A stretch of DNA of 64,000 nt, from NCBI GenBank assembly GCA_049719955.1, contig JBNARC010000004.1:16782-80781 (forward strand), written 5' to 3'. Below, one piece after another: positions 2,595 through 22,416 of this stretch (position 1 is its first letter; every line of letters begins with the position of its first letter). The translations under genes and the position numbers were made by a program. The notes under the pieces were generated by a model. It saw nothing but the letters and a program-made list of their open reading frames with translations, searched no databases and was not told where the DNA came from. Origin of the DNA: Moorellales bacterium. GTDB taxonomy: Bacteria; Bacillota; DSM-521; Neomoorellales; SLTJ01.

Positions 2595-3113
2595 GTGGCC
2601 TGGGAACGATTGGGGCGTTGGTTACAGCCCGACCTTCAGGTGGAGCGCCTGGTGGAGGTGCCGCTGGAAAGTCTGTGGCGACGGGGGATTCGGGCCCTAA
2701 TCGTGGATCTGGATAATACGGTCACCTTTTGGAATAGCCCGGTGGTGCCCGAAGACGCCCGAGCATGGTTCCGGTCGGCTCGCGAACAGGGTTTTGGCCT
2801 TTGCCTAAGTTCCAATAATGTATACACTCGGGCCGCGGGTATTGCCCGGTCCCTGGGGGTGCCCGTGGTCTGTAGCGCCGGCAAGCCGCGTCGTCGCGCC
2901 TTCCGCCAGATGCTGGCCGTGCTGGGCAGCCGTCCGGAAGAGACGGCGGTAATAGGCGATCAGATCTTTACCGATGTCTTGGGCGGCAAGCGCCTGGGCC
3001 TTTTCACCGTCCTGGTACGGCCCCTGGGGCCGCAGGAATTTGTGGTCACCCGACTGCTGCGACGGCTGGAGCGTTTGGTGATGCGCTCCTGGCCGGAAAG
3101 AGGGTACGAGTAG
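2595..3113 (+). CDS. yqeG: YqeG-family HAD-IIIA phosphatase
   Basis: Motifs 'LIVDLDNTV', 'LSSNN', 'AGKPRRRAF' and 'VIGDQIFTDVLGG' match the family. The gene sits directly upstream of aroE, as in the Firmicute yqeG operon. Confidence 0.85.
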   Translation: MAWERLGRWLQPDLQVERLVEVPLESLWRRGIRALIVDLDNTVTFWNSPVVPEDARAWFRSAREQGFGLCLSSNNVYTRAAGIARSLGVPVVCSAGKPRRRAFRQMLAVLGSRPEETAVIGDQIFTDVLGGKRLGLFTVLVRPLGPQEFVVTRLLRRLERLVMRSWPERGYE

Positions 3114-4016
3114 TTGTCCGTGATTACCGGTCGGACCTTCGTATTGGGAATCATCGGTTGGCCGGTGGAGCACAGCGTTTCTCCGGCCATGCATAATGCC
3201 GCCCTGACCGCCCTGGGATTGGACGGGGTTTACGTGCCTTTTTCCGTGGCGCCACCGGACCTGGAAGCGGCCCTGAAGGGGCTTTGGGCCCTGGGAGTGC
3301 GGGGGGCAAACGTGACCGTTCCTCACAAGGAGGCGGTCATTCCTTTCTTAAGTCGTCTCAGTCCTGAAGCCAAAGCGATTGGAGCGGTGAACACCCTGGT
3401 TCGGGAAGACGGCGGCTGGACGGGGTATAACACCGACGGCGTCGGGTTCGTACGCTCTTTGGAAGAAGAATTAGGCCTGGCCGTAGGCGGTAGGCGGGCG
3501 CTGCTTCTGGGCGCGGGAGGAGCCGCGAGGGCGGTGGCCTTCGCTCTGGCCGGTGCCGGGGCCGGGGTGATCACCCTGGCTAACCGCAGCCGGGAGCGGG
3601 CCGAGGTGTTGGCTCGAGACCTCGCCCGGCAGGCGCAGGCGGAGGTCCATGTGCTGCCTCTGGAGCCGGAAGCCTTGGCCGGCGCTCTCGCGGAGAGTGA
3701 TCTCTTGATAAACTGCCTTCCGGTGGGCATGTACCCTCGGGTAGAGGAAATGCCCCCCGTGCCGGTGGAGAAGCTGTCTTCGAACCTGGTGGTTTGTGAC
3801 CTAATCTATAATCCTCGAAGCACGCGGTTGCTACAGGCAGCGCAGGCTCGGGGCTGCCGGACCCTGGACGGCCTGCCCATGCTGGTGGCTCAGGGGGCGG
3901 TGGCCTTCGAACTGTGGACGGGAAAGAGCGCGCCCCGAGAAACCATGCGCCTGGCGGCGGAGCAGGCCCTGGGCCGGGCCGGCGGTGGCGGGTTCCACGG
4001 CTCACCGGGACGGTAG
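3114..4016 (+). CDS. aroE: shikimate dehydrogenase
   Basis: Contains '[19 protein letters not shown]', '[11 protein letters not shown]', 'NTDGVGF' and the '[11 protein letters not shown]' Rossmann motif. Confidence 0.9.
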
Positions 4017-4032
4017 ACAAGGGGGAGAAGTC

Positions 4033-5223
4033 ATGGGCGCCCTTCGCTTCTTAACCGCCGGCGAATCCCACGGTCCCCAACTCACCGTGATTGTGGAAGG
4101 GGTGCCGGCGGGGCTGCCGCTGGAGGCGGAGTACATAAACCGGTGGCTCTCCCGGCGCCAGCAGGGGTACGGCCGGGGCGGCCGGATGGCCATTGAGCAG
4201 GATCGGGCGGAGATTGTGGCCGGAGTGAGGGGCGGGCTCACCCTGGGGTCGCCGATCGGGCTGGTAGTGCGCAACCGGGACTGGGAGAACTGGCGCGAGG
4301 TTATGGCTCCCGGTCCCGAGGCCCGGTTGGACGAGAGGGTAATAACCCGGCCTCGCCCGGGTCACGCCGATCTGGCCGGAGCCATGAAGTACCGGCACTT
4401 GGACCTGCGGAACGTGCTGGAGCGGGCCAGCGCCCGGGAGACGGCCGCCCGGGTGGCGGCGGGAGCGGTGGCGGCGCGCCTGTTGGAAGCGGTGGGGATC
4501 GAGCTTCGGGCCCACGTGGTGCGGATCGGGCCGGTGAAGGCGAGCGCCCCGGTCGATCCAGAGACCCTTGGCCGCGTTTGGTCTTCTCCCGTGTTCTGCG
4601 CCGACCCGGAGGCGGAGAAAGCCGTGATGGCGGCCATCGACCGGGCCCGGGAGGAGGGCGACACCCTGGGCGGCGTCTTTGAAATCTTGGTCCTGGGTCT
4701 TCCTCCCGGTTTGGGCAGCTACGCCCACTGGGATCGCCGGCTGGACGGAAGGCTGGCTCAGGCCCTCATGAGCATACCGGGGATAAGAGGGGTGGAGATC
4801 GGGCTGGGGTTTGAGGCCGCCTCCCGGCGGGGCTCGGAAGTTCACGACCCCATTTTCTGGGAGGCCGGGCGCGGCTTTTACCGGGGCAGCAACCACGCCG
4901 GGGGCCTGGAGGGCGGGGTTACCAACGGCCAGCCCTTGGTGCTGCGGGCGGCCATGAAGCCCATTCCCACCCTGCGCAAGCCGTTGGTCAGCGTGGACCT
5001 GCGCGACCGGCAGCCCGTATTGGCCGCTTACGAGCGATCGGATGTTTGCGCCGTGCCTGCGGCCAGCGTGGTGGGCGAGGCCATGGTGGCCCTGGTGCTG
5101 GCGGACGCTTTGCTGGAGAAGGTGGGCGGGGACAGCCTGGAGGAAGTGAGGGCCAACTTGGAGAATTACCGCCACCATCTGGCGGCCTTCGGCGGGGTGG
5201 AGGAAGATTCTAGAGAGAAGTAA
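4033..5223 (+). CDS. aroC: chorismate synthase
   Basis: Begins '[17 protein letters not shown]...' at ATG 4033, preceded by GGGGGAG. The 16 upstream codons of the track ORF are judged non-coding. '[10 protein letters not shown]' is also present. Confidence 0.9.
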
Positions 5224-5242
5224 TATTGTACTCATCGGCTTC

Positions 5243-5764
5243 ATGGGCGTGGGCAAGACCGCGGTGGGCAGGCGCCTGGCCGCGGTTCTTAATAAGCGCT
5301 TCGTCGATACCGATCTAGAAGTGGAGCGGGCTACGGGCCGGAGCATTCCCGAACTTTTCGCCCGTTACGGGGAGCCCCGGTTTAGGGAGGAAGAGGCGCG
5401 AGTGGTGGCCGAGGTGTGCCGGGGCCGGAATCAGGTCATCGCCACCGGCGGCGGGGCGGTGCTGCGGCCGGAAAACGCCGCCGTCCTGCGGAGTTCGGGC
5501 GTGGTGATCTGGCTCGAGGCGGCGCCGGAGGTAATATACCGTCGGGTGGGCAAGGGGAGCGGTCGGCCGCTTTTGGCCTCGGGGTCCGCCCGGGAGCGGA
5601 TCCGGGAGCTGCTGGCGGCACGCGAGCCTTACTACCGGGCGTTGGCCCACTTCCGCGTGGATACCTCCGGCCGCTCGGTGGAGGAAGTGGTGGCGGAGAT
5701 TCTGGCGCGGCTGAAGACCTTGAAAGGGGAGCCGGCTTCGCTTGGGGAGGGGTGGGGTCGGTGA
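5243..5764 (+). CDS. aroK: shikimate kinase
   Basis: Contains the 'GFMGVGKTAVGRRLA' P-loop and 'ATGGGAV'. The conserved N-terminus 'NIVLIGF' lies upstream of ATG 5243 with only ATT (5225) as an in-frame candidate, so the true start is uncertain. Confidence 0.85.
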   Translation: MGVGKTAVGRRLAAVLNKRFVDTDLEVERATGRSIPELFARYGEPRFREEEARVVAEVCRGRNQVIATGGGAVLRPENAAVLRSSGVVIWLEAAPEVIYRRVGKGSGRPLLASGSARERIRELLAAREPYYRALAHFRVDTSGRSVEEVVAEILARLKTLKGEPASLGEGWGR

Positions 5765-6975
5765 GGCGGGAGCTGTGGGTGGAACTGGGGCCGCGGCGCT
5801 ATCCCATCTATATCGGTCGGGGATTGCTGGACGGGCTCGCCCGGCACCTGGATTTTTCTCCGGCCTCTTCGGCGCTTCTGGCCGTCTCCAACCCCACGGC
5901 AAGAGCCCTTTACGGGCCGCGATTAGAGGCCGGGTTGACGACCGGCGGCTGGCGCTTCGGCTGGGCCCTGGTGCCCGATTCCGAAGAGGCCAAGAGCCTG
6001 TCCGTTCTGGCCGACCTTTACCAGCAGGCCCTGGCCCTGGAGCTGGACCGGCGCTCGGCGGTGCTGGCCCTGGGAGGAGGCGTGGTGGGGGACGTAGGGG
6101 GTTTCTTGGCCGCTACCTACCTGCGGGGAATTGCCTACGTACAGATTCCCACCACCCTGCTGGCCCAGGTGGATTCTTCGGTGGGGGGTAAGGTGGCGGT
6201 AAACCTTCCCCAGGGAAAGAACTTGGTGGGCGCCTTTTACCAGCCACGCCTGGTTGTGGCCGACCTGGACACCCTGGCCACCCTGCCGGCGCGGGAGTGG
6301 CGCTGCGGGCTGGCGGAAGTGGTGAAGTACGGGGTTATAGGCGACCCGGAACTTTTCGCGCTGCTGGAAGAAAAAGCGGAACTGCTCGCCCCCTACACCG
6401 GCGCTACCGGAGAGGCACGGCCGACAGGCGAGGGCCGGGGGCGCAGCGGCGACCACGCCCGGAAAACGCTTGCCGCCGAAGATCCCGCCTCGGTCACCGG
6501 CGGCCTTTCGGAGGAGGCGGCCGGGCTACTGGAGGAGATCGTCTGGCGCTGCTGTCGAATTAAGGCGGAAGTGGTGGCCCGGGACGAGCGGGAGGAAGAG
6601 GGGCACCGGATGATCCTCAATTTCGGCCACACCGTGGGCCACGCCCTGGAGGCGCTGACCGGTTACCGGGACTGGCGCCACGGCGAGGCGGTGGCCGTAG
6701 GCATGGTGGCGGCCGGCCGGCTGGCCGTGCGTCTGGGCCTCTGGACGGCGGCGGAGGCGGAGCGGCTGGAAGCCCTCCTGCGGGCGTTCGGCCTGCCCGT
6801 GCGCCTGCCGCCGGGGCCGGAGCCCGAGACCATCGTGGCCGCCATGTACCGGGACAAGAAGGTGGTGGGCGGCAGCCTCACCCTGGTCCTGCCGCGCCGC
6901 CTGGGCGAGGTGGAGGTAGTGCGGGGGGTGCCGGAGGAGCAGGTGCTGGCGGCGCTGCGGGAGACCGGCTACTGA
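5761..6975 (+). CDS. aroB: 3-dehydroquinate synthase (with an internal low-complexity insertion)
   Basis: GTG 5761 overlaps the aroK stop (GTGA). Contains 'GGGVVGDVGGFLAATYLRGIAYVQIPTTLLAQVDSSVGGKVAVN' and 'LNFGHTVGHALE'. The first 115 codons of the track ORF (5416-5760) lie in another frame of aroK and are rejected. Confidence 0.9.
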   Translation: MRRELWVELGPRRYPIYIGRGLLDGLARHLDFSPASSALLAVSNPTARALYGPRLEAGLTTGGWRFGWALVPDSEEAKSLSVLADLYQQALALELDRRSAVLALGGGVVGDVGGFLAATYLRGIAYVQIPTTLLAQVDSSVGGKVAVNLPQGKNLVGAFYQPRLVVADLDTLATLPAREWRCGLAEVVKYGVIGDPELFALLEEKAELLAPYTGATGEARPTGEGRGRSGDHARKTLAAEDPASVTGGLSEEAAGLLEEIVWRCCRIKAEVVARDEREEEGHRMILNFGHTVGHALEALTGYRDWRHGEAVAVGMVAAGRLAVRLGLWTAAEAERLEALLRAFGLPVRLPPGPEPETIVAAMYRDKKVVGGSLTLVLPRRLGEVEVVRGVPEEQVLAALRETGY

Positions 6976-7078: not shown

Positions 7079-8782
7079 GTGAGGGTGGTGCGTAAGCGTC
7101 TGGGCGAACTCTTATTGGAGGCCGGTCTAATAACCAGCGAGCAGTTGGATAAGGCCCTGGCGGAGCAGAAGCGTACGGGCGAGCGGTTGGGCAAGGTGTT
7201 GATCCGCCAGGGCCTGGTTAAGGAACAGGACATCATCAATGTGCTCGAGTTCCAGTTGGGCATACCCCAAGTGCGGTTGGCTCCCGGCACCCTCGACCGG
7301 GAATTGGCCCGCATCCTGCCGGAACCGCTGGCCCGGCGGTACCAGGCGGTACCGGTGCGGTGGGAAGGCGGCCGGCTGGTAGTAGCCATGGTGGATCCCC
7401 TAAACGTGACCGCGGTCGACGACTTGAGGCTCAGGACCGGCCGAGAGATCCTACCGGCCATCGCTCCCGAAGCGGACATAGAGCGGGCCTTGGCCGAGCT
7501 CTACGGCCAGCCTCTATCCCTGGAAGAGTTGGCTACGGTAGAGGAGGGTGAGGGCGCGCGAGCGCTGCAGGCGGAAGTTTTTGACCTGGATCGACCGGCA
7601 GCCGCCGCTGGGGCCGAGGCCCCGGTGGTGCGGCTGGTGAACGGCCTGCTCCAGCAGGCCCTGCGGGAGCGGGCCAGCGACGTGCACCTGGAGCCGCAGG
7701 CGGAAGCAATCAGAGTCCGCTACCGGGTGGACGGTACCCTGCGGCCGGTCATGACCCTGCCTAAGACCCACCACGCCCCCTTGGTTTCGCGAATAAAGGT
7801 CATGGCGGGCATGGACATCGCCGAAAAGAGGCTTCCCCAAGACGGTCGGGTGCAGATCCGGGTGGCGGGCCGGCAGGTAGACCTCAGGGTGTCCACCCTT
7901 CCCACCATTTTCGGGGAAAAAGTGGTGATTCGCCTTCTCGACCGCACCTCCGCCTATCTGGCGTTGGACGAGCTGGGCTTTGGGCCCAAGGCGCTGTCCC
8001 GGTACCGGGAGTTGGTCCGCCGCAGTTACGGCATGATTCTGGTTACCGGCCCGACGGGCAGCGGTAAGACCACCACCCTATACGCTACCTTGAGGGAAAT
8101 CAACACCCCGGAGAAGAACATCATCACCATAGAAGACCCGGTAGAGTACGTGCTGGAGGGCATTAACCAGATCCGGGTCAACCCCAAAGCCGGGCTTACC
8201 TTTGCTTCCGGGCTGCGCTCCATCCTGCGCCAGGACCCGGACGTGATCATGGTGGGGGAGATTCGCGACCGCGAAACGGCGGACATCGCCATCCGCTCCG
8301 CTAATACCGGGCACCTGGTGCTCAGCACCATGCACACCAACGACGCCGCCGGGGCGGTCACCCGCCTGCTCGACATGGGAATTGAACCGTTCCTGGTGGC
8401 CTCCTCGGTGATCGGGGTGGTGGCCCAGAGGCTGGTGCGCACCTTATGCCGCCACTGCCGGCGGCCTTACGAGGTACCGGCGGAGGCGGAAGAGCGGCTG
8501 CTCCTGGGCGAACCTCCGCACACGCCTCTGACTCTATATCGGGCCGTAGGTTGCCCGGAGTGCGGGGGGACGGGTTATCGTGGCCGCACCGCCATCCTCG
8601 AGGTCATGCCCATGACCGGTGCTTTGCGGCGCCTGGTTTTGGCGCGCGCTTCCAGCGAGGAAATCGCCGCCCAGGCCGTGGCCGAAGGCATGGTAACCTT
8701 ATGGCGGGACGGGCTGGAGAAGGCCCGCCAGGGTCTGACCACCCTGGAGGAGGTAGTGCGGGTGGCGTACGCCGGCGAATGA
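7079..8782 (+). CDS. pilB: type IV pilus assembly ATPase PilB (GspE family) with an N-terminal MshEN c-di-GMP-binding domain
   Basis: Contains Walker A 'GPTGSGKTTTLYA', 'RQDPDVIMVGEIRD' and the C-terminal tetracysteine 'CRHC...CPECGG'. The N-terminus carries a tandem 24-residue RLGxxLLxxGLI....L...L..Q motif. Confidence 0.92.
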   Translation: MRVVRKRLGELLLEAGLITSEQLDKALAEQKRTGERLGKVLIRQGLVKEQDIINVLEFQLGIPQVRLAPGTLDRELARILPEPLARRYQAVPVRWEGGRLVVAMVDPLNVTAVDDLRLRTGREILPAIAPEADIERALAELYGQPLSLEELATVEEGEGARALQAEVFDLDRPAAAAGAEAPVVRLVNGLLQQALRERASDVHLEPQAEAIRVRYRVDGTLRPVMTLPKTHHAPLVSRIKVMAGMDIAEKRLPQDGRVQIRVAGRQVDLRVSTLPTIFGEKVVIRLLDRTSAYLALDELGFGPKALSRYRELVRRSYGMILVTGPTGSGKTTTLYATLREINTPEKNIITIEDPVEYVLEGINQIRVNPKAGLTFASGLRSILRQDPDVIMVGEIRDRETADIAIRSANTGHLVLSTMHTNDAAGAVTRLLDMGIEPFLVASSVIGVVAQRLVRTLCRHCRRPYEVPAEAEERLLLGEPPHTPLTLYRAVGCPECGGTGYRGRTAILEVMPMTGALRRLVLARASSEEIAAQAVAEGMVTLWRDGLEKARQGLTTLEEVVRVAYAGE

Positions 8783-8801: not shown

Positions 8802-9845
8802 GTGGACCTCGACGCGGTCCTGCGCGAGGCGGTAGAGCTGGGGGCCTCGGACGTACATATTACCGTGGGCCTGCCGCCGGTGTTCCGGATCCACGGCCAG
8901 TTGCGACGGCAGGACCACCTTCCGGTGGTGACCCCGTTGGTGGCCGAGCAGGTATTGCGCTCCCTGGTGCCGGAAGAGCTTTACCAGCGCTTTCAGAAGA
9001 CCGGCGACCTGGACTTCGCCTATTCCCTGGCCGGAGTGGGGCGTTTTCGGGTCAACGCCTTTAAGCAGCGGGGGAGCGTGGGCCTGGCTATGCGACTGAT
9101 AAATACCCGCATTCCCACTCTGGAGGAACTGGGCCTGCCGGCGGTGGTGGCGGAACTGGCCCGGCGGCCCAAAGGGCTGGTGCTGGTCACCGGCCCTACC
9201 GGCAGCGGCAAGTCCACTACTCTGGCGGCCATGATCGGGCTTATCAATCGGGAGCGGGCCTGCCATATCGTGACCCTGGAAGACCCCATCGAGTACGTGC
9301 ACCGGCACGGAAAGAGCGTAATCAATCAGCGAGAGGTTGGCAGCGACACCCTGAGCTTCGGGCAGGGGTTGCGGGCGGCTCTGCGGGAGGACCCGGACGT
9401 TATCATGGTGGGAGAGATGCGGGACCTGGAAACCATCTCCACTGCCATCACCGCCGCGGAGACCGGTCACCTGGTGCTGGCCAGCCTGCATACCGCCAGT
9501 GCCGCTCAAACCGTAGACCGCATAATCGACGTGTTTCCTCCCCACCAGCAGTCCCAGATCCGGGTGCAACTGGCCGACACGCTGGAGGGAATCGTCGCCC
9601 AGCAGTTGCTGGCCCGCGCCGACCGGCCCGGCCGGGTGGTGGCGGTGGAAGTGCTGGTGGCCACCCCGGCGGTGCGCAACCTGATCCGGGAGGGCAAAAG
9701 CCACCAGCTTCTCTCCGTGATGCAGACCGGCGCCCGGTACGGCATGTGCACCATGGAGGCCTCGGTACGGGAGTTGGTGCGGCAGGGCAAGGTGACGGCC
9801 GAGGAGGCGGCCCGGGTGCTGGGCAGCCTGGCAGGCGCCTACTGA
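8802..9845 (+). CDS. pilT: twitching-motility (retraction) ATPase PilT
   Basis: Contains 'GPTGSGKSTTLAAMI', 'REDPDVIMVGEMRD' and 'TGHLVLASLHT'. Length is 347 aa. Confidence 0.9.
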   Translation: MDLDAVLREAVELGASDVHITVGLPPVFRIHGQLRRQDHLPVVTPLVAEQVLRSLVPEELYQRFQKTGDLDFAYSLAGVGRFRVNAFKQRGSVGLAMRLINTRIPTLEELGLPAVVAELARRPKGLVLVTGPTGSGKSTTLAAMIGLINRERACHIVTLEDPIEYVHRHGKSVINQREVGSDTLSFGQGLRAALREDPDVIMVGEMRDLETISTAITAAETGHLVLASLHTASAAQTVDRIIDVFPPHQQSQIRVQLADTLEGIVAQQLLARADRPGRVVAVEVLVATPAVRNLIREGKSHQLLSVMQTGARYGMCTMEASVRELVRQGKVTAEEAARVLGSLAGAY

Positions 9846-9870: not shown

Positions 9871-11094
9871 GTGCCTACCTACCGTTACCGGGCGCGCGAT
9901 GCCCGTGGCCGGCTTCACATCGGTACGCTGGAAGCAGAGAGCGAGGTGGCCGTGACCCAGGAACTGCGTCGGCAGCAGTTCTTCCCGGTGGAGGTGAGGC
10001 TCCAGCAGCGTGTGGGCCTCCCCTCCCTAGCCTGGTCAAAGGAAGGGTGGTTTTCTCCCCGGCCTAAGAGCGGCGACCTGGCTTTCTTGTGCCGCCAGCT
10101 CGCCACCCTGGTGGGGGCGGGAGTGCCGGTGGTGCCGGCCCTGCGGGCGCTGGCCGAGCAGACGGCCAACCGGGCGCTTAAGCTGGCCCTGCGCGGGGTG
10201 GTGGGGCGGGTGGAGGGCGGCGCGGCGCTGGCCGAGGCCCTGGACGCCTTTCCCCGCATCTTCCCCCGCCTGATGGTGCGCATGGTGGCGGTGGGCGAAG
10301 TGGGCGGCGTGCTGGACGAGGTGTTAGAGCGCCTGGCCGCACATTTTGAACGAGAGCACGAACTGTACCAGAAGATTCGTTCTGCCCTCACCTACCCGGC
10401 GTTCGTTTTTCTAGCCGCCGTGGCGGTAGTGATTTTTCTCTTCCTGTCCGTGCTTCCCGTCTTTGGGCGGATGCTGGCCTCTCTTAACGTGCCGCTGCCC
10501 CTGCCTACGCTGGTGATTTTGGGCATCGGGGAAGCAGGGCGAAAGTATTGGTATTTTGCACCCCTGCTTCCCGCGGTGGCAGCTTTAATTGTCCGGCAAC
10601 ACCGCTCCACGCCAGGGGGGCGGAAGTGGTGGGATCAACGTCTTCTTTACTTACCGCTAGTGGGCGGGCTGTACCGGCAAGTAATAGTGTCCCGCTTCAG
10701 CCGGAGTCTAAGCACGCTCCTGCGGGGCGGCGTGCCGTTGCTTCAGGCCTTGGAGGTACTGAAAGGGATACTGGGCAACCTGGTCATGGAGGAGGGGCTA
10801 GACCAGGTCCAGGAAGCCATCCGTCGCGGCGAAAGCTTGGTCGCAGCTTTGGAACGAACCGGACTATTCCCGCCAATGGTCACCCAAATGATCGCTGTAG
10901 GCGAGGAATCGGGCACGCTGGACGCCCTCCTGGAGCGGGTCAGCATATTTTACGACCGGGAGGTGGAGGCAGCTACCGCTCGGCTATCCAGCCTGATAGA
11001 GCCCATACTGATCCTGGTGATGGGCGGGGTGGTAGGTACGGTGGTGGTTTCGGTGTTGCTGCCCATGCTGACCGTAGTGCGGAACGTACGTTAG
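9871..11094 (+). CDS. pilC: type IV pilus platform protein PilC (T2SS F family)
   Basis: The 407-aa protein has two T2SF repeats ('FPRLMVRMVAVGEVGGVLDEVLERL' and 'FPPMVTQMIAVGEESGTLDALLERV') and three hydrophobic segments. Confidence 0.9.
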   Translation: MPTYRYRARDARGRLHIGTLEAESEVAVTQELRRQQFFPVEVRLQQRVGLPSLAWSKEGWFSPRPKSGDLAFLCRQLATLVGAGVPVVPALRALAEQTANRALKLALRGVVGRVEGGAALAEALDAFPRIFPRLMVRMVAVGEVGGVLDEVLERLAAHFEREHELYQKIRSALTYPAFVFLAAVAVVIFLFLSVLPVFGRMLASLNVPLPLPTLVILGIGEAGRKYWYFAPLLPAVAALIVRQHRSTPGGRKWWDQRLLYLPLVGGLYRQVIVSRFSRSLSTLLRGGVPLLQALEVLKGILGNLVMEEGLDQVQEAIRRGESLVAALERTGLFPPMVTQMIAVGEESGTLDALLERVSIFYDREVEAATARLSSLIEPILILVMGGVVGTVVVSVLLPMLTVVRNVR

Positions 11095-11204: not shown

Positions 11205-11302
11205 GAGGATACCGAAAGGGCAAACCCGGCGAAAGTCGGGGGCGCAAAGCCGCGGGCCTAAGGACCGAGGGCGGGTCTAAGGTGGCCGGGCTGCCGAAGT
11301 CG
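11205..11302 (+). promoter_or_regulatory. c-di-GMP-I (GEMM-I) riboswitch aptamer
   Basis: 'AAAGGGCAAACCCGGCGAAAGUCGGGGGCGCAAAGCCGCGGGCCUAAGGACC...GGUCUAAGGUGGCCGGGCUGCCGAAG' aligns almost position for position with the Vibrio Vc2 aptamer. Shared elements are GGGCAAACC, a GAAA tetraloop, GGGACGCAAAGCC, CCGGCCUAA and GGUAGCGGGGUUACCGA. Confidence 0.85.
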
Positions 11303-11331
11303 ACCAAGAGCGGCAGCTCGGTTTAGTTTTT
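11288..11331 (+). terminator. intrinsic terminator forming the riboswitch expression platform
   Basis: The stem pairs GCTGCCG (11290-11296) with CGGCAGC (11311-11317), around a 14-nt loop, and is followed by GGTTTAGTTTTT. The 5' arm is also the 3' strand of the aptamer. Confidence 0.65.
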
Positions 11332-11550
11332 GCGGGCGGACAGAAGCGGGGGTGAGGAAGGAGGAAAGGGAAGGACGGTTGAAGCCCAGAATACGTAGCG
11401 GCGTGCTTCGGTCTTCGGCTACTTAAGTAACGGTGGTGCGAGAAAAGCTGTGGACTGGGCGGCAAATGCGGCCCGACATCGGAAAACATCAAGAGGTACT
11501 TAGAGGTTCGACCCAACGGAAAGTTTGATTTGGTAAGGAGGCGAGTGGGA

Positions 11551-11970
11551 ATGCGTTGGATGCGGAGGCAACTTAACCGCGCCCGTCGTGACCGGGGTTT
11601 CACGCTCATTGAGTTGATGGTGGTTATAATCATTATCGGCATCTTGGCTGCTATTGTCCTGCCGAACTACTTGGACTTGGGAGAGAAGGCCAAGAAGGGT
11701 CGGGCCAAAGGGGAGCTGAAGGCCCTGGGTGCGGCAGTCGGGCTTTATCGTGCGGATAAGGGTGTGTGGCCGGAGGATACCGACCTGGAAGGCAACCTCG
11801 AGGACTATGGTTTTAGCGAGCGGCCTGACGATCCATGGGGAAAGGAATACAAGTGGGATAAGAACAATAAGTACATCTACAGCCTAGGTCCTAACGGGGA
11901 ATGGAATAGCTACGGTGGGGATGACATTTATTACGATGCTAATAAGCAGAAATTCGGACCCAATATCTAG
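11551..11970 (+). CDS. pilA: major type IV pilin (GspG/PulG-like pseudopilin fold)
   Basis: ATG 11551 follows TAAGGAGG. The prepilin leader 'MRWMRRQLNRARRDRG|FTLIELMVVIIIIGILAAIVLPNY' is present, and the C-terminal 'DPWGKEYKW...GPNGEW...GGDDIYY' is T2SS-G-like. Confidence 0.9.
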   Translation: MRWMRRQLNRARRDRGFTLIELMVVIIIIGILAAIVLPNYLDLGEKAKKGRAKGELKALGAAVGLYRADKGVWPEDTDLEGNLEDYGFSERPDDPWGKEYKWDKNNKYIYSLGPNGEWNSYGGDDIYYDANKQKFGPNI

Positions 11971-12028: not shown

Positions 12029-12781
12029 GTGGAACAGGGGCTGGTTGTTATACTCGGCCTGGCAGTAGGAAGTTTCCTCAATGTGTGCATCTATCGTCTT
12101 CCCAGGGGGGAATCATTGGCGTTCCCCCCTTCTCGTTGTCCGACCTGTGGACACCGGTTGGCGCCGCAGGATTTGGTGCCGGTGCTGAGCTACCTATGGC
12201 TCAGGGGGCGCTGCCGCTACTGCGGGGAGAGGATCTCCCCTCTGTATCCCCTGGTGGAGCTGGGTGCCGGCGGCCTTTTTGGGCTACTCTACAGCATGTA
12301 TGGGCTTTCACCCGAGCTGATAAGCCGGCTAGTGCTGGCCTCGGGACTCCTGGTGGCGGCAGTGATTGACCTGCGCCATTACCGGATTCCCAACCAGTTG
12401 GTGGTGTTTCTGACTGTCGCCGCGCCCCTCCTTAACCTGTGGACCCGCGAACTCCCCTGGTGGCAGGTGCTGGCCGGCGCGGCGGTGGGGGCGGGGATTC
12501 TGGGGGCGTTGGCCGTCTTGAGCCGGGGCGGCATGGGCGAGGGAGATGTGAAGTTGGCCGCGGCTACTGGCCTCTACCTGGGTCCGGCGGGCCAGGTCCT
12601 GGCCATATTTCTGGCCGCGGCCGCGGGGGCCATGGTGGGGGGAGTGCTGATCGCGAGCGGCCGCAAGAAGCGCCGGGATCCTATTCCTTTTGCGCCCTTT
12701 TTGGGCATCGGTAGCTTCATTACTTACGTGTGGGGAGCGGACTTGTGGCGGCTTTATCTTTCCTGGGCGGGCCTAATGTAG
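12029..12781 (+). CDS. pilD: prepilin peptidase / N-methyltransferase (A24 family)
   Basis: Contains 'GSFLNVCIYRLP', the zinc motif 'CPTCGHRL...CRYCGERI', and the catalytic regions 'AAVIDLRHYRIPN' and 'GMGEGDVKLAAATG'. Confidence 0.9.
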   Translation: MEQGLVVILGLAVGSFLNVCIYRLPRGESLAFPPSRCPTCGHRLAPQDLVPVLSYLWLRGRCRYCGERISPLYPLVELGAGGLFGLLYSMYGLSPELISRLVLASGLLVAAVIDLRHYRIPNQLVVFLTVAAPLLNLWTRELPWWQVLAGAAVGAGILGALAVLSRGGMGEGDVKLAAATGLYLGPAGQVLAIFLAAAAGAMVGGVLIASGRKKRRDPIPFAPFLGIGSFITYVWGADLWRLYLSWAGLM

Positions 12782-12848: not shown

Positions 12849-14993
12849 GTGCGATACCAAGGTGAAACCGGACGCGAGGTGTTGCTTTTGCCCGGGCGGG
12901 TGGTCACTATGGAGGGGCAGCAGGCCGGCGAGAGTTCGGCGCGAGCCTCTCCCGTGGCCTTTGCTCGCGCCCTATGGTCCAGGTCGGTTTGGCGGGAGCA
13001 AAATTACGCCTTCCTGGTCCTGCTAGCTGCGGTGGGTCTACTGCCCCTTTTCCACAATGGGTACCAGCATCCCGCCACCAGGTGGGTGGGGTTCGCAGTG
13101 GCGGCCGCTACCTTCTGGGCGGCCGGAGGCGAACCGAAGTACAAATCCTTGTCTACCAGACCGGCAACCGACGTCCGGGTCTTTGCGGCCGTTCTTGCCT
13201 ACGTGCTCTGGGCGGGCGGGAGCGTTTTTTGGTCAGTGAACCGGACGAATTCGCTAGGGGAATGGTTTTACCTGGGCACCTACGGGTCGGCCTTCTACCT
13301 TGCCTACGGTTACCTTTCCCGCCAGGAAGCCGCCAAGCTGGTTCGGTTTCTCGTAATCTTTGGCTCCCTACTTTCCGTTGCCGGCATCGCGGAGTACTTG
13401 CTTCTGAACCCTGGCCGGATAGTCGCAACCTTCATAAACCCCAACCCTCTCGGTGGGTACCTGGCCATGCTTTGCCTACTGGCCCTGCCCCGGTGGCTTA
13501 CGGCGGCGGAAAACGGTCGCGGTCGGTGTTTTCTTTTCGGCGGTCTGGGCGCCTTTGCCGTCCGTCCGGCGCTCTCCCTTGCTTTGTTGCTCATGCTAAC
13601 CGGTTTGGCCCTCACCGGGTCCCGCGGAGCCTGGATGGCTTTTGCCTTCGGCTCTGCAGCGCTGTTTATCTTGCGCCCCCGGGCCCGGAGCTTGCGAGTG
13701 GGGTGCGCCTTCGGCCTGCTGCTGGCCGTGGTAGCGCTGGTCGCCGTAGGTCTAGCGCATATCGCGGCCTGGTTACAGCAAACTGAAGGGGCGCGGTGGC
13801 TTGCCGGGAGGCTTCTAGAGGCCAACCTCATCCGGGCGGAGAGTTTCGGCTCTAGCTCCGTCGGTGGTCGTCTTTCCTTTTGGGGGGTGGCACTCCGAGA
13901 GGCGGCGGCGCGACTGCTAACCGGCTTCGGCCTGGGCAATTATCATGAGGTCTACTTCCTCTATTGGCCGGGAGACGAGTTTTACTCCAAGTACGCCCAT
14001 AACCACTATCTCCAGACCGCTGCCGACCTAGGCCTTCCCGGGGCCATCCTCCTAGCCCTGGCCTTGTCCCTCTTGGCCACGGCTCTATGGGGCCGGGTTC
14101 GGCGTTTGCGGGCGCACCCCCTTCCCCTAGGCCTGTTTGCCTCCTGCCTTGCCTTCCTGTTTCATAGCGGGGTGGACTTCACCTGGGATATGCCCGCCGT
14201 AACCCTCACCTTTTGGGTGCTGGCCGGAACCGCCTTGGGGCTGAGTCGCAACCATAGGGTCCCAACAGGCATGAACCGATACCGAGTGGCCTTCCGGGCG
14301 GTGGCGCTGGCCACGGCACTTCTGGCCGTCCACGCCTGGGTGGTAGACCACTATTTGAATCTAGGAGTGGAGGCGGCCCGGGAAGGCGAAAGCTCTCGAG
14401 CGTTGGCGTCGTGGCAAAAGGTCGAGGTGCTGGCGCCGTGGTCGCCTGCTCCCTGGTACTATAGGAGTCGGCTTTGGACCGGGGAGCCGAACCGGGGGGA
14501 GAGGGCGGCGGCCGAGGCGGTTAGACGTTCTCCCTACGATAAGGATCTTCGCCTAATACTGGCCCGCTTTCAGGAGCAGCTCGGCCATATGGAAGCAGCC
14601 GAAGAGAATCTGCGCCTGGCCCTGAGTCTGGGCGGTTACTACCCTGGTCCCCATCTTACCTTGGGACAATTCTATTTGCGTCAGGCTCGGTGGTCGGAGG
14701 CGGAAGAGGTAATGGCCCGGGGCCTGGCATTGAAGGACTTCGCCCTGGCCCGGGCTCCTAACGCCAAGGAGACAGCGCGCCTGGAGGAGCAGATCCTGGG
14801 GCTGCGACTGGGTCTGAGCCGGGCCTACGCAGAACAGGGGCGCTTCGAGGCGGCGGTGCAGCAGCTTACCGAAGTGCTGCGGGCTCACCCCAACCATGAG
14901 GCGGCGCGGCAACTACTGGAGCGTTACCGCGCCCAAGCGGCGATGGCCACCGAGCAGGAAAGGCTTCCTCAGATGTCGAATGGGGGCTACTGA
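12849..14993 (+). CDS. polytopic O-antigen ligase-like (Wzy_C) membrane protein with a C-terminal TPR domain; candidate pilin O-oligosaccharyltransferase
   Basis: The 714-aa protein has at least 10 hydrophobic helices. The Wzy_C signature 'YAHNHYLQTAADLGLPGAILL' is present. C-terminal TPR-like repeats include 'LTLGQFYLRQARWSEAEEVMARGLAL' and 'YAEQGRFEAAVQQLTEVLRAHPNHEAA'. The start is uncertain (GTG 12849 or ATG 12909). Confidence 0.75.
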   Translation: MRYQGETGREVLLLPGRVVTMEGQQAGESSARASPVAFARALWSRSVWREQNYAFLVLLAAVGLLPLFHNGYQHPATRWVGFAVAAATFWAAGGEPKYKSLSTRPATDVRVFAAVLAYVLWAGGSVFWSVNRTNSLGEWFYLGTYGSAFYLAYGYLSRQEAAKLVRFLVIFGSLLSVAGIAEYLLLNPGRIVATFINPNPLGGYLAMLCLLALPRWLTAAENGRGRCFLFGGLGAFAVRPALSLALLLMLTGLALTGSRGAWMAFAFGSAALFILRPRARSLRVGCAFGLLLAVVALVAVGLAHIAAWLQQTEGARWLAGRLLEANLIRAESFGSSSVGGRLSFWGVALREAAARLLTGFGLGNYHEVYFLYWPGDEFYSKYAHNHYLQTAADLGLPGAILLALALSLLATALWGRVRRLRAHPLPLGLFASCLAFLFHSGVDFTWDMPAVTLTFWVLAGTALGLSRNHRVPTGMNRYRVAFRAVALATALLAVHAWVVDHYLNLGVEAAREGESSRALASWQKVEVLAPWSPAPWYYRSRLWTGEPNRGERAAAEAVRRSPYDKDLRLILARFQEQLGHMEAAEENLRLALSLGGYYPGPHLTLGQFYLRQARWSEAEEVMARGLALKDFALARAPNAKETARLEEQILGLRLGLSRAYAEQGRFEAAVQQLTEVLRAHPNHEAARQLLERYRAQAAMATEQERLPQMSNGGY

Positions 14994-15002
14994 GGGAGGA
15001 AT

Positions 15003-15506
15003 ATGCTGAAGATCAAGCGCCCTTGGCCTAGTGTGTCTGGATGTCCTGGTTTTACCCTTTTGGAGGTCCTAATGGTGGCGGTAATTTTGGGGATTCTGGC
15101 TGCCACCGTGGCCCCCCAGGGTGCGGCGCTAGTACAGTCCTACCGGCTAAAGGAGGCGGCGGAAATGGTGGCCGCCGATCTCCGGCTGGTACAGCAGCGG
15201 GCGGTGGCCGGTGAGGGCCGGAACTGGCGCCTAATCTTCAACCTGGGAGGCAACCGGAGCCGATACCTGGTACAGCAGGGTACCGGGGGAGTGAACCTGA
15301 TCCGGGACTTGCCTAAAGGCATAGTTTTCGACGGAGACATCAAGGTTGGGGCAGCGTACAATGAGGTGTGGTTTGACTTAGAGGGTACGCCTAACTCCGG
15401 GGTGGTGGACATCGTCATCCCCCTGAAGGACGAGCAGAGCGGCCGTTATCTTTTTGTCCAGGTTGGCGGGACTACCGGTCGAGTATCGGTTACCGAGCGC
15501 CTGTAG
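15003..15506 (+). CDS. minor pilin (GspH/FimT-like), prepilin-type N-terminal cleavage/methylation domain
   Basis: The leader 'PG|FTLLEVLMVAVILGILAATVAP' is present, in pilus-operon context. Confidence 0.8.
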   Translation: MLKIKRPWPSVSGCPGFTLLEVLMVAVILGILAATVAPQGAALVQSYRLKEAAEMVAADLRLVQQRAVAGEGRNWRLIFNLGGNRSRYLVQQGTGGVNLIRDLPKGIVFDGDIKVGAAYNEVWFDLEGTPNSGVVDIVIPLKDEQSGRYLFVQVGGTTGRVSVTERL

Positions 15507-15543
15507 GGTGGCGCTCGGTTAGGAGTCCAGGAGCGGATGGCTA

Positions 15544-15993
15544 ATGGGGCGAACCGGGCCAAGGAAGAGGGTACGCGAGGATGGTTTTACTCTTATAGAA
15601 GTACTTGCGGCCCTGGCCATTCTGGCCGTAGCCCTGATACCACTTATGGATGTATTCGGGCAGAGCCTAAGACTGGGAGAGCAGGCAGGCGAGGAAAGTG
15701 TTGTAACCTATCTGGCGCAGGAAAAGATGGAGCAGTATCTCTTCTGGTTCCGCCAGCACCGAGGCCAGGGTCTGGAACTTCGGGCCAAGCTCGAGGCGGA
15801 TCACGTTGACCTCGATCCTGACGACGGCGAGGATCCCGAGTTTCGGCCTTTAGACGATTTCCCCGGCTACGCCTATCGGGCCTGGTTGGCTCCGGAATAC
15901 GGTAACGGCGAAGCCAGGCAGTTGCGGCGGCTTAAGGTGGAAGTTAGGGGGCCAGAGGGCCGGCCGGTCGTGCTAACCACTTTGGTTTGGTGA
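15544..15993 (+). CDS. minor pilin (PilV/GspI-like)
   Basis: The leader 'REDG|FTLIEVLAALAILAVALIPL' is present. Length is 149 aa. Confidence 0.8.
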   Translation: MGRTGPRKRVREDGFTLIEVLAALAILAVALIPLMDVFGQSLRLGEQAGEESVVTYLAQEKMEQYLFWFRQHRGQGLELRAKLEADHVDLDPDDGEDPEFRPLDDFPGYAYRAWLAPEYGNGEARQLRRLKVEVRGPEGRPVVLTTLVW

Positions 15994-16006
15994 GGACTAA
16001 GGGACC

Positions 16007-16588
16007 ATGGTGAATCATCAGTCCCTGAGAAGGTCGCCTGGAGGACAGAGGCGGTTGCGCCTTGGCGACGGCGGGTTTACGCTTCTGGAGGCCCTCTTGG
16101 CTGCCATGTTGATGGTAACCGTCGTGGCCTCGGCCTACGTCCTGCTTGAGCAAGGGGCGCTCTCGTGGCAGGTGCAGGCCGACCGGCGGGAGGCCCGGGA
16201 GAACTTGCGCGTGGCCCTGGCCAGAATAGGTAAGTACGCCCGGGAAGCCACGGGAGTAAAGGTAGAGGCCAACGGAGCCGCGCTCACCCTTTCCTGGTAC
16301 GATCTGAGTAACGCTCAGTGGAAGCAAATCCGCTACCAGGTAATGCGGGGCGCCCTTTGGGAAGGGCGCCGCAACAAGTCCGGTCCGGAATGGGTATCTA
16401 CGCCCAACCCTTCGACCGACTACGTCTGGAAGGTGTTGGCCGAGCGCATAGTGGAAGCCCGGTTTACGACCGAGGGAAACGGAGACGCCAGGCTGGTGAG
16501 CGTGGGGCTGGTCGCGAGGGACCGTCGCGGAGTTGAGCAGGCGGTGAGTACCAAGTTAATGGCGCGGGTGGTCTCGGTGAATCCGTAG
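16007..16588 (+). CDS. minor pilin (PilW/GspJ-like)
   Basis: The leader 'GDGG|FTLLEALLAAMLMVTVV' is present. Length is 193 aa. Confidence 0.8.
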   Translation: MVNHQSLRRSPGGQRRLRLGDGGFTLLEALLAAMLMVTVVASAYVLLEQGALSWQVQADRREARENLRVALARIGKYAREATGVKVEANGAALTLSWYDLSNAQWKQIRYQVMRGALWEGRRNKSGPEWVSTPNPSTDYVWKVLAERIVEARFTTEGNGDARLVSVGLVARDRRGVEQAVSTKLMARVVSVNP

Positions 16589-16638
16589 CCCTTCGGGACA
16601 AGCCTGGAAAGCATCTGCCGGACAAGGGGCGGGCTTCG

Positions 16639-17862
16639 GTGTGGGGTGATGAACGCCTGAGCAGCGCAGCGAGTCGGCCCTGCTGGATTGAGGATCAGGG
16701 CGTGACCCTGATGACCGTCCTCGTGGTTCTAACCGTATTATTGGGGTTGGGCCTGGCGGCCTTGGCTCTTACCCTGATCCATAAAGATATCAGTCGCACG
16801 GAGGTGCGAAGCCTGCAGGCCTTCTACGCCGCCGAAGCGGGCATCCAGGCGGCCCTGGCCCAATTAGCGGCCAGCCTTGAATGGCCGGGGTATGACCCTT
16901 CTAGAGGGATAGGCAGCTTACCGGCGATTGCCGATCAACTGGAGGGTGCCCGGATCAAGGAGATTCTGTTGACGCCTCAGGGAGAAGTGTTGCAGGTTGA
17001 GGCCCGGGGCGAGGCTGGTGACCTCACCCGCCGGGTGGCGGCTTTGCTTCGGAAGCCTGCCTGGGCTTTCGGTTTGATTCTTTACCAGGCCACGGCACCG
17101 GTGAGCATCGGAGGTAACTCTTACCTGCGAGGCACTTTTATCTTTGCCGGCGACGTTACCATCGGGTCGTCCGTGCAGGTGGGGGATTCCCAGGCCAGAG
17201 ACGGGTGGATTATCTCCGGTGGCAATGTAGTCAACAAGGGAGTGGTTTACGGCGGGGTGAAAGCTCGGGGAGTGGTTGACAATTCTCAGGGAACGATCGT
17301 GGGGGTTCTGGAACAGCGGGCGGAAGTCTTCATTCCTCCGGTTACGGCTCCAGATCTACAGTATTACTACATCCGCGCCGACGAAAGGTTGGCCGAACCG
17401 GATGGCGAGGTTGAGTTGACGGGTGAGGCCCTGCAGGCTTTCATCAATGCCGGAAAACGTATTGTTTACGTGGACGGAGATCTGGTTTTGGACGAAAAGG
17501 GTAACCGCAACATCGTTTACGAGGGACAAATCGCCCTCGTGGCCAGCGGTAGTATAGAAATAAGAGCAGATGTGGTCAGGGGGCCCGGAACCCAAGAGAC
17601 TAGCGTCTTGGCCTTAATCGCTGGTGGAAACATTATAGTGCACAACCAGGAAGTGGAAGCTCTGCTATGGGCGGGCGGTGAGCTTTGTACCTACGGTAAT
17701 CCCTCCATACGCGGAGCGGCGGTAGCGGCCACCTTAGAGGCAAGCGGTGGGTGTAACCTCACCTATGACCTTATCCTTACCAGTCAGTTTTGGAATAGCT
17801 TTCTCTTGCCGCCGGACGAGTTCGGCCTTAAGATGGTACGCTGGTGGGCGAAGGGGTCGTAG
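16639..17862 (+). CDS. large PilX-like minor pilin / putative tip protein with a Gly/Val-rich beta-solenoid-like C-terminal region
   Basis: The N-terminus 'GVTLMTVLVVLTVLLGLGLAALALTLIH...AFYAAEAGIQAAL' resembles a PilX_N-type anchor and lacks Glu5. The C-terminal 250 aa contain repetitive G-x-V/I strands. Confidence 0.7.
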   Translation: MWGDERLSSAASRPCWIEDQGVTLMTVLVVLTVLLGLGLAALALTLIHKDISRTEVRSLQAFYAAEAGIQAALAQLAASLEWPGYDPSRGIGSLPAIADQLEGARIKEILLTPQGEVLQVEARGEAGDLTRRVAALLRKPAWAFGLILYQATAPVSIGGNSYLRGTFIFAGDVTIGSSVQVGDSQARDGWIISGGNVVNKGVVYGGVKARGVVDNSQGTIVGVLEQRAEVFIPPVTAPDLQYYYIRADERLAEPDGEVELTGEALQAFINAGKRIVYVDGDLVLDEKGNRNIVYEGQIALVASGSIEIRADVVRGPGTQETSVLALIAGGNIIVHNQEVEALLWAGGELCTYGNPSIRGAAVAATLEASGGCNLTYDLILTSQFWNSFLLPPDEFGLKMVRWWAKGS

Positions 17863-17873
17863 GGGGGGGCCAT

Positions 17874-21102: not shown

Positions 21103-22416
21103 ATGCCTAACTGGCCTGGGTTGGTGGCGGCAGGGGCGGCGGCCGGGGTGGCGGTGGCTCTGTACCGGCAGAACCGGAGACTGCGGCGGGCCCGCTCGGC
21201 TTTGGAGCAAAAGGTCCGGGAACTGGCGGAGCGTAACCGGCTTCTGGAGGGGCTAGCGATAACCGACGGGCTTACCGGACTTTACAACCGCCGCTACTTC
21301 GAGCAGCGCCTGGCGGAGGAGATAAGCCGCTGCCAGCGGTACGAATCGGTGCTGGCGCTGGCCATGATCGACGTGGACTACTTCAAGTGCTACAACGACG
21401 CCTTGGGACACGTAGAGGGCGACCGGGTGCTGCAGGATCTGGGCGGCCTGCTCCGGGAGAGCGTGCGGGAAGGAGACGTGGTGGCCCGCTACGGCGGGGA
21501 TGAGTTTGCCGTCATCTTCGTAGAAATGGATTCTTTGGTGGCGCAGAAGGCCGGCGAGCGCATCCGGGAGAACATCGAGGCCTACGCCGCCAGGCTGGTA
21601 GGCTCCGGCTCGGGCGCGGCGGAAGAGCTGTTGACCGTTTCCGTGGGCATTGCCAGCTTTCCCAAGGACGCCGAGACCGCCGAAGAACTCATCAGCAAGG
21701 CCGACCAGGCCCTGTACCGGGCCAAGGAGGGCGGGAAGAACCGGGTGGTGGTCTACCAGTCTCCCCTGGAGGAGCTGGCCCAGGGGACGGAGATACCGGA
21801 GCAAGAAGAGGAAGAGGGCGACCTTGCCCTCCACCTCATGCGGGCCATACGCTCCATCCTCCTTTCCATCAACGCCCGCGACCGCTACACCTACGGCCAT
21901 TCCCAGCGCACCACCCGTTACGCCGAGGCCCTTTCGCGCCGCCTGGGGCTGGCTCCGGAGCGCGTGCGGCTGGTCAAGCGCGCCGCCCTGCTGCACGACG
22001 TGGGCAAGGTCAACATCGATAAAGAGATCCTTATTAAGTCTAAGCCCCTTTCTGCGGAAGAGAGGGAGATCATCAGGCGCCATGCCCTCATGAGCGCGCA
22101 GATAATCGAGCCGGTTAAGGAGCTGGCCCGGGTAATTCCCATTGTGGAGCAGCACCACGAGCGCTACGACGGCAAGGGCTACCCCCGAGGTCTGGCCGGT
22201 GAAGAGATTAGCCTTGAGGCCCGCATCCTGGCCATTGCCGACGCTTATGATGCCATGCGCTCCCCGCGGCCCTATCGCGACGCCCTAAGCTTTGCCGAGG
22301 CGGTAGCGGAACTGCGCCAGGGGGCGGGCACGCAGTTCGACCCTCACCTGGTAGAAGCGTTCATAGAAGTGATTCGGGAGCTGGAGATGGGGGCTGCCGG
22401 TCGGCCTCGCGCCTGA
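21103..22416 (+). CDS. membrane-anchored diguanylate cyclase (GGDEF) fused to an HD-GYP phosphodiesterase domain
   Basis: Contains 'DGLTGLYNRRYF' and 'RYGGDEFAVIF', with an RxxD I-site ('REGD') five residues upstream of GGDEF. The HD-GYP part has 'LLHDVGK' and 'HHERYDGKGYPRGL'. Confidence 0.9.
   Translation: MPNWPGLVAAGAAAGVAVALYRQNRRLRRARSALEQKVRELAERNRLLEGLAITDGLTGLYNRRYFEQRLAEEISRCQRYESVLALAMIDVDYFKCYNDALGHVEGDRVLQDLGGLLRESVREGDVVARYGGDEFAVIFVEMDSLVAQKAGERIRENIEAYAARLVGSGSGAAEELLTVSVGIASFPKDAETAEELISKADQALYRAKEGGKNRVVVYQSPLEELAQGTEIPEQEEEEGDLALHLMRAIRSILLSINARDRYTYGHSQRTTRYAEALSRRLGLAPERVRLVKRAALLHDVGKVNIDKEILIKSKPLSAEEREIIRRHALMSAQIIEPVKELARVIPIVEQHHERYDGKGYPRGLAGEEISLEARILAIADAYDAMRSPRPYRDALSFAEAVAELRQGAGTQFDPHLVEAFIEVIRELEMGAAGRPRA

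Follow-up and report, generated by a model that had tools for sequence, protein, structure and literature searches.

The 64,000-nucleotide stretch of Moorellales DNA analysed here (the window) encodes a type IV pilus (T4P) cluster that includes pilB, the gene for the pilus extension ATPase, and in which a c-di-GMP-I-type riboswitch aptamer stands ahead of the major pilin gene pilA. In an initial annotation, it was proposed that PilB carries a complete tandem MshEN motif for binding cyclic di-GMP (c-di-GMP), and that pilus extension is controlled through this motif in addition to a riboswitch acting on pilA. The evidence considered below, which comprises sequence, fold homology, an Rfam match, overlapping RNA structures and synteny, is best explained by a two-layer c-di-GMP response of the pilus cluster that combines an MshEN-bearing PilB with an ON riboswitch, and a probability of about 0.8 is assigned to this reading. 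The gene and the parts of its product lie as follows:

7079..8782, + strand: pilB, T4P extension ATPase of 567 aa (Pfam T2SSE 484 bits; MshEN 85 bits)
7097..7168, + strand: MshEN motif copy 1, residues 7-30, RLGELLLEAGLITSEQLDKALAEQ; 11/11 defined positions, aligned to MshE R9-Q32
7169..7183, + strand: spacer KRTGE, 5 residues (31-35), of invariant length in 121 aligned sequences
7184..7255, + strand: MshEN motif copy 2, residues 36-59, RLGKVLIRQGLVKEQDIINVLEFQ; 10/11 defined positions, aligned to MshE R38-Q61, with I52 against MshE L54
7256..7519, + strand: MshEN C-terminal alpha/beta subdomain, residues 60-147 (Pfam PF05157, 85.1 bits against a cut-off of 23.1; AlphaFold2 (AF2) secondary structure)
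7616..8761, + strand: T2SSE ATPase core (PF00437, residues 180-561), 484 bits, with Walker A, Walker B-type box, His box and four Cys

Positions 7097-7255 (+) of the pilB open reading frame (ORF) translate to RLGELLLEAGLITSEQLDKALAEQKRTGERLGKVLIRQGLVKEQDIINVLEFQ, a block of 53 residues. The MshEN consensus is RLGxx[LVI][LVI]xxG[LVI][LVI]xxxxLxxxLxxQ, present in two copies with a 5-residue spacer (PMC5013675). The translation is identical to that quoted in the initial annotation, which had described the first copy as perfect, the second as differing by Ile for Leu at position 17 alone, and the two as separated by KRTGE; each of these particulars is borne out, with Ile52 as the sole mismatch. 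Window PilB scores 21/22 against the strict motif and 22/22 against the relaxed published motif, in which the hydrophobic set (h = LIVAFYWM) includes Ile (PMC5013675). Vibrio cholerae MshE likewise scores 21/22, the one miss being motif-2 position 11, where it has Phe. When the whole window is translated in six frames, the strict motif occurs once, against 1.7e-6 occurrences expected by chance, and thus the PilB motif is not a chance match; the same scan yields PilB alone, with no second MshEN protein in the window. In addition, the ligand site has a curated NCBIfam model of its own, NF053729 ('c-di-GMP_motif'), to which residues 7-59 match along the full length (model 1-53/53) with 75 bits against a cut-off of 38.

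The residue numbering used here presupposes initiation at the GTG codon at 7079, preceded by GGGAG at a distance of 5 nt. For P0001, a near-identical protein of 565 aa from the Moorellales metagenome-assembled genome (MAG) GCA_049721505.1, the NCBI start lies two codons later, and with a start of this type R7 and R36 would become R5 and R34.

A Protein Data Bank (PDB) sequence search with residues 1-159 returned T. thermophilus PilF, the Geobacter and Myxococcus PilB proteins, and MshE (5HTL, E = 1.6e-20). In the case of MshE, residues 3-63 of PilB align gap-free to residues 5-65, and the Arg-Lys before motif 1 is kept. In this alignment, PilB R7/L8/G9, L23, L27 and Q30 correspond to MshE R9/L10/G11, L25, L29 and Q32, and PilB R36/L37/G38, I52, L56 and Q59 correspond to MshE R38/L39/G40, L54, L58 and Q61; the polar and stacking contact residues of MshE are all kept in window PilB. 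An AF2 model of residues 1-150, built with 29 aligned sequences (pLDDT 91.6, pTM 0.82), predicts helices at 8-14, 20-33, 37-43 and 49-60, with an alpha/beta subdomain after them. A comparison of such a model with the MshEN-c-di-GMP structure had been put forward in the initial annotation as a check, and Foldseek against the PDB places 5htl_B, 'Structure of MshE with cdg', at the top (E = 2.6e-12, TM 0.76/0.81, 36% identity), with the c-di-GMP-bound GSPII domains of PilF as runners-up. The first ~150 residues of PilB are a canonical MshEN domain, an assignment that is secure, and the complete tandem c-di-GMP site of the initial annotation is supported in silico by NF053729, by the MshE alignment and by the predicted fold.

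By correspondence with V. cholerae MshE, residues 7-59 would form a four-helix bundle holding one c-di-GMP molecule. In this arrangement, stacking on the guanines would come from R7 and R36, the two hydrophobic triangles would consist of L8/I52/L56 and L23/L27/L37, the backbone amides of G9 and G38 would read O6/N7, and Q30 and Q59 would contact ribose and phosphate. As judged from the alignment and the model, c-di-GMP is very likely bound by the N-domain in the same way as by MshE.

The second c-di-GMP element of the cluster lies downstream of pilB, between pilC and pilA:

8802..9845, + strand: pilT, retraction ATPase (TIGR01420, 482 bits against a cut-off of 319)
9871..11094, + strand: pilC, platform protein (Pfam T2SSF, two repeats)
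11209..11298, + strand: c-di-GMP-I riboswitch aptamer (Rfam RF01051, 81.1 bits against a gathering score of 35, model 1-87/87)
11284..11331, + strand: terminator-like hairpin followed by UUUAGUUUUU; 13 bp, -25.3 kcal/mol, with the aptamer closing strand 11286-11292 in its 5' arm
11551..11970, + strand: pilA, major pilin with the signal ...RDRG/FTLIELMVV (Pfam N_methyl, T2SSG) and GGAGG 9 nt upstream of the ATG

The claim of the initial annotation that a riboswitch acts on pilA accords with this full-length RF01051 match ahead of the gene, ligand switching being a prediction. The hairpin pairs 11284-11296 with 11311-11323 across a 14-nt loop, and was found by sequence reading and folding; a terminator scan with a loop limit of 8 missed it. 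In the structure that Rfam assigns to the aptamer, the second helix is closed on its 3' side by the strand CCGGGCU at 11286-11292. As this strand belongs to both structures, aptamer and terminator are mutually exclusive in the predicted folds, an arrangement suggestive of a riboswitch that is probably an ON switch. The same overlap of aptamer and terminator is found in four related loci (L083, L082, L084 and L086), three of which also have U-rich tails.

The cluster holds a third c-di-GMP element, absent from the initial annotation, in its last gene:

21103..22416, + strand: GGDEF + HD-GYP protein of 437 aa (Pfam GGDEF 166 bits, HD_5 147 bits)

The product has an N-terminal hydrophobic (transmembrane) helix, an RxxD I-site (REGD) 5 residues before GGDEF, an HD motif and HHERYDGKGYP; its domains are apparently intact, and no sensory domain is present besides the N-terminal helix. 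Orthologs occur in two further loci, one 85% identical and in the same place after pilO and an NPCBM gene in L169, the closest relative of the window, the other 58% identical and 4.5 kb downstream of pilMNO (L170). This enzyme may set or buffer the c-di-GMP signal.

Taken together, these elements suggest how the two-layer response would operate. At high c-di-GMP, the ligand-bound N-domain would permit or stabilise productive PilB function, resulting in more pilus polymerisation. At the RNA level, the ligand-stabilised aptamer would sequester strand 11286-11292, such that no terminator forms and transcription proceeds into pilA, and probably also into downstream genes, which would then be co-transcribed with it. 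Here, one signal would act at two layers, pilin supply through the RNA and motor activity through the protein. The two 'independent' checkpoints of the initial annotation are not independent in this sense, since a single ligand is sensed by the two receptors. The affinity of riboswitches for c-di-GMP is generally higher than that of MshEN domains, and for this reason the RNA and protein sensors may respond at different c-di-GMP levels, with thresholds that probably differ. The dissociation constants of MshEN domains span about 14 nM to 0.5 uM (PMC5013675). With respect to the direction of the effect on extension, it is plausible, with a modest balance of likelihood in its favour, that binding favours pilus assembly, because V. 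cholerae MshE and M. xanthus PilB behave in this manner.

Several points weigh against the two-layer reading. The inferred ON polarity is based on fold predictions whose z-scores are modest (-2.2 to -2.6), and no sigma-70-like promoter was found ahead of the aptamer in a promoter scan. Between the terminator and pilA there is a GC-rich leader of ~220 nt (11332-11550, +) with no assigned feature. In the case of the protein, MshE Leu54, the counterpart of I52, belongs to a Leu10-Leu54-Leu58 triangle that stacks on one guanine, and the combination of L54A and L58A yields a constitutively active protein (PMC5013675); with I52 in this triangle, affinity or coupling could therefore differ in window PilB. 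Lastly, as relayed in the review PMC11656802, c-di-GMP left ATP hydrolysis by C. perfringens PilB2 unaltered despite high-affinity binding. Because hydrolysis was unchanged, the effect of c-di-GMP on PilB may be exerted via stability, conformation or partner engagement and not via catalytic rate.

The C. perfringens result also speaks for the alternative that survives best, in which the MshEN domain would bind c-di-GMP without gating extension, and would instead have another output, such as stability, localisation, or polysaccharide signalling as proposed for M. xanthus/C. thermophilum PilB, or would act as a docking module. In keeping with such a role, mutations in the MshEN domain of M. xanthus PilB for the most part altered the amount of PilB, and the catalytic role of the N1 domain has been called poorly understood (PMC11656802). 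M. xanthus PilB is also described as an exopolysaccharide (EPS) signalling protein (PMC5544727). V. cholerae MshE, however, must bind c-di-GMP for pili to be produced and biofilm to form (PMC5013675), and the presence in the cluster of two more c-di-GMP elements tied to pilus genes fits pilus output as the regulated trait. An output that bypasses extension is thus regarded as improbable, the two-layer control of pilus formation being preferred.

A further alternative is that the motif is a structural remnant that does not bind c-di-GMP, as in XpsE/GspE-type N-domains, for instance with the Ile disturbing the hydrophobic triangle. Many PilB/GspE N-domains are degenerate, and Xanthomonas XpsE has lost binding (PMC5013675). 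A multi-phylum sample of 152 PilB-type ORFs, taken from among the matches listed, mostly distant (42-59% identity) and used as background only, illustrates this tendency: the motif score is at least 20/22 in 13 of the 152, the relaxed motif scores 22/22 in 16, and about half score 16 or less. The rarity of a near-perfect motif in this sample cuts the other way for the window protein, which is among the best-preserved carriers, and favours, on comparison of sequences, a working site over a remnant. For the Bacillota homologs considered next, column counts from an alignment were used, since a simple regular expression under-counted motif carriers, many of them having N/K at Gly-10 or T at position 7.

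The substitution itself can be judged from an alignment of window PilB with 120 Bacillota PilB homologs (54-87% identity), giving 121 sequences. The 53-residue motif block is free of indels throughout, and G9, L12, L23, R36 (120/121), L37 (120/121), G38 and L56 are invariant or nearly so. At motif-2 position 17, Ile is found in 87 sequences, Met in 30 and Leu in 1. As I or M occupies the position in 117/121 Bacillota sequences, Ile52 is, on the evidence of this alignment, a clade trait and not a sign of decay in the window genome. This clade-wide pattern, the strong purifying conservation of the block, the retention of all polar and stacking contact residues, and the inclusion of Ile in the relaxed set of the authors who defined the motif (PMC5013675) all run counter to a remnant. 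Loss of binding in XpsE came from eight non-conservative changes, 0 of which are present in window PilB. A non-binding remnant is accordingly very improbable, and an MshEN domain that binds c-di-GMP is the reading retained.

The remaining pilus genes and their neighbours, all on one strand with the upstream aro block included, bear on the identity of the ATPase:

2595-6975, + strand: HAD-family phosphatase and aro (shikimate pathway) genes (L001 gene calls; Pfam for 3985-5223 and 5416-6975)
12029..12781, + strand: pilD, prepilin peptidase (Pfam A24_N_bact, Peptidase_A24)
12849-14993, + strand: Wzy_C/TPR protein of 714 aa, between pilD and the minor pilins
15003-17862, + strand: minor pilins and a PilX-like protein
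17844-20265, + strand: pilM, pilN, pilO
20299-21084, + strand: Cu_amine_oxidN1/NPCBM protein

The alternative that the window protein works in type II secretion, as GspE, and is no pilus motor has a next to negligible chance of being right: the GspE model passes its cut-off where the PilB model falls short, and NCBI calls P0001 GspE, but the PilB model scores higher, pilT, pilC, the pilin, pilD, minor pilins and pilMNO come after the window gene, and the host belongs to the Bacillota, a group in which an outer membrane and a type II secretion system (T2SS) are mostly absent. The ORF at 7079-8782 is the PilB of a T4P cluster with a retraction ATPase, and not part of a T2SS. Its core has a Walker A (GPTGSGKT), a Walker B-type box (DPDVIMVGE), a His box (HLVLSTMHTNDA) and a tetracysteine (C457/C460/C492/C495), and the Walker, His and Cys positions are invariant columns in the alignment of Bacillota homologs. 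Window PilB scores 646.6 bits with TIGR02538, the PilB equivalog, missing the trusted cut-off of 675.65, and 632.7 bits with TIGR02533, the GspE model, passing the cut-off of 630.25 by 2 bits. These cut-offs were probably set on proteobacterial sequences. The public label of P0001, 'type II secretion system ATPase GspE', stems from TIGR02533 clearing its cut-off while the higher-scoring TIGR02538 misses its own, and for Bacillota PilB proteins 'GspE' is a naming artefact.

Nine close loci were found by locating contigs encoding PilB homologs, with scans of distant loci serving as background only. Of the 9, 7 have an aptamer of the c-di-GMP-I type within the pilus cluster. In the Moorellales-like loci L001, L082 and L083 it is placed between pilC and pilA, and in Neomoorella thermoacetica (L084, 9748-9831), Thermosediminibacter oceani (L086, 9779-9866) and Desulfofundulus (L088, 3750-3838) between pilT and pilC; in Desulfovirgula (L002, 10860-10948), a nearly identical aptamer lies downstream of pilB at a comparable distance. 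The junction thus varies between relatives, and different sets of pilus genes consequently lie behind the riboswitch. No aptamer was found in the pilus clusters of Calderihabitans (L085) and Heliomicrobium (L087), the other two close loci. The pilus gene order that starts with pilB is repeated in L082-L087 and L169.

Among the matches listed, 160 distant loci were searched with an RNA model made from the close-relative aptamers, resulting in one Rfam-confirmed case (L007). This model (R2) was built on the Rfam-derived structure; an earlier one (R1), with an RNAalifold structure unlike the Rfam fold, was dropped. R2 matches in L054, L099, L097 and L142 were weak, below the Rfam gathering score, and were excluded from the counts. 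Given 7/9 close relatives against a single confirmed case in 160 distant loci, the pairing of an MshEN-bearing PilB with an intra-cluster c-di-GMP riboswitch appears to be a design shared at the level of the lineage among these thermophilic Bacillota, as far as comparison of the loci can indicate.

An extension of this idea is that the cluster constitutes a self-contained c-di-GMP circuit kept in Moorellales and neighbouring thermophilic Bacillota, in which PilB would be a pre-made protein gate, and the high-affinity ON riboswitch would free the pilin and downstream assembly genes and possibly also the terminal GGDEF/HD-GYP gene, whose enzyme would in turn act back on the signal. In such a circuit, expression of pilB-pilT(-pilC) would bypass the riboswitch, and the junction, pilT-pilC or pilC-pilA, would set which parts are pre-made. 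This extension is speculative and rather unlikely to hold.

The aptamers of the related loci are not uniform. Those of L082 (11090-11176), L084 and L086 have c-di-GMP-I-GGC (RF03167) as their best match, with ~70 bits against a gathering score of 59, and not RF01051; one of the three loci encodes a PilB 87% identical to window PilB. This variant class may differ in ligand specificity. In the Desulfovirgula and Desulfofundulus aptamers, an A stands before GGCAAA where the window has G (alignment column 10), a position corresponding to G20 in Vc2, at which an A switches GEMM-I RNAs towards 3'3'-cGAMP. If the same holds here, the L002 and L088 clusters may read another dinucleotide, and the G in the window fits c-di-GMP.

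Among the closest known systems is V. cholerae MshE (5HTL; PMC5013675), which shares the two 24-residue motifs and 5-residue spacer, the two-subdomain fold and the N-terminal position on a T4P extension ATPase, with contact residues identical in window PilB save L54, which is I52. It differs in that overall identity is 36%, and in that the window carries a thermophile-type Bacillota PilB/PilT (T4aP-like) cluster and not MSHA, with binding predicted. The MshEN domain was defined in 2016 (Wang et al.), in a study that called it widespread (PMC5013675). Binding of c-di-GMP is known for M. xanthus PilB and C. perfringens PilB2 (PMC11656802), and among Bacillota PilB proteins the domain has been published for C. 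perfringens PilB2, where binding was demonstrated, and for C. difficile PilB1 and Paenibacillus thiaminolyticus (PMC11656802, PMC9765702, PMC8653836).

As presented in the review, C. perfringens PilB2 (Hendrick et al. 2017 via PMC11656802) is a Bacillota PilB with an MshEN motif nearly identical to that of MshE, for which c-di-GMP binding is experimental and pilin polymerisation responds to c-di-GMP. It belongs to a different order, the comparison is through the review and not by residue, and no riboswitch report was found for that cluster in the portion of the literature consulted. The primary T4P locus of C. difficile shows a pairing like that in the window, with an ON-type riboswitch, Cdi2_4, on pilA1 and an MshEN-bearing PilB1 (Bordeleau 2015; PMC9765702; PMC8653836). 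There, however, the riboswitch is of the c-di-GMP-II class and lies ahead of the operon, whereas in the window a class I riboswitch is found inside the cluster, after pilB-pilT-pilC, such that pilB is not behind it, and a GGDEF/HD-GYP gene closes the cluster. Two-layer c-di-GMP control therefore has a published precedent in C. difficile, which, like the published MshEN-bearing PilB proteins, goes unmentioned in the initial annotation, and the window offers nothing new in kind.

The strongest PDB sequence matches are to the MshEN-like GSPII-A/B/C domains of T. thermophilus PilF (6F8L, 8PDK; E = 1.1e-53 summed), a thermophile T4P ATPase of which GSPII-B and GSPII-C bind c-di-GMP (PMC11731258). 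In contrast to window PilB, with one domain and canonical Arg residues, PilF has three tandem domains, K/L/P for the first Arg and a shortened motif. M. xanthus and Geobacter PilB (3JC8, 5TSG, 5ZFR) have the same full-length domain order, and M. xanthus PilB binds c-di-GMP via MshEN; unlike the window cluster, both belong to diderm T4aP systems, and the Geobacter spacer is 7 residues.

What is modestly new here is that the riboswitch is internal and does not control pilB, that it recurs in several orders, and that a GGDEF/HD-GYP gene closes the cluster. The comparative result may outweigh the domain call, in that a riboswitch downstream of an MshEN-bearing PilB recurs in Moorellales MAGs, N. 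thermoacetica, Thermosediminibacter, Desulfofundulus and Desulfovirgula. For the protein itself, the 'GspE' annotation is corrected to a predicted c-di-GMP-responsive PilB, and pilus formation in uncultured Moorellales is predicted to be driven by c-di-GMP at the RNA and protein levels. The cluster does not represent a new mechanism class, but may provide a compact system for the study of one second messenger read at two thresholds.

The surroundings of the cluster are also partly shared with relatives. The HAD phosphatase gene, aroE, aroC, aroK and aroB lie directly upstream of pilB in the window, and most relatives are alike in this respect (L082-L085, L087). As the gap between aroB and pilB is only ~100 nt, pilB might share a transcript with these housekeeping genes. 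The Wzy_C protein, which is O-antigen ligase-like with C-terminal TPR repeats, is a candidate pilin glycosylation enzyme and is present in L083 and L085 too, and the Cu_amine_oxidN1/NPCBM gene is found directly 3' of pilO in the window, L169 and L170. Further downstream, a full-length OLE (ornate large extremophilic) RNA is encoded at 38736-39346 (+; 495 bits), which fits the genome of an anaerobic or extremophile member of the Bacillota.

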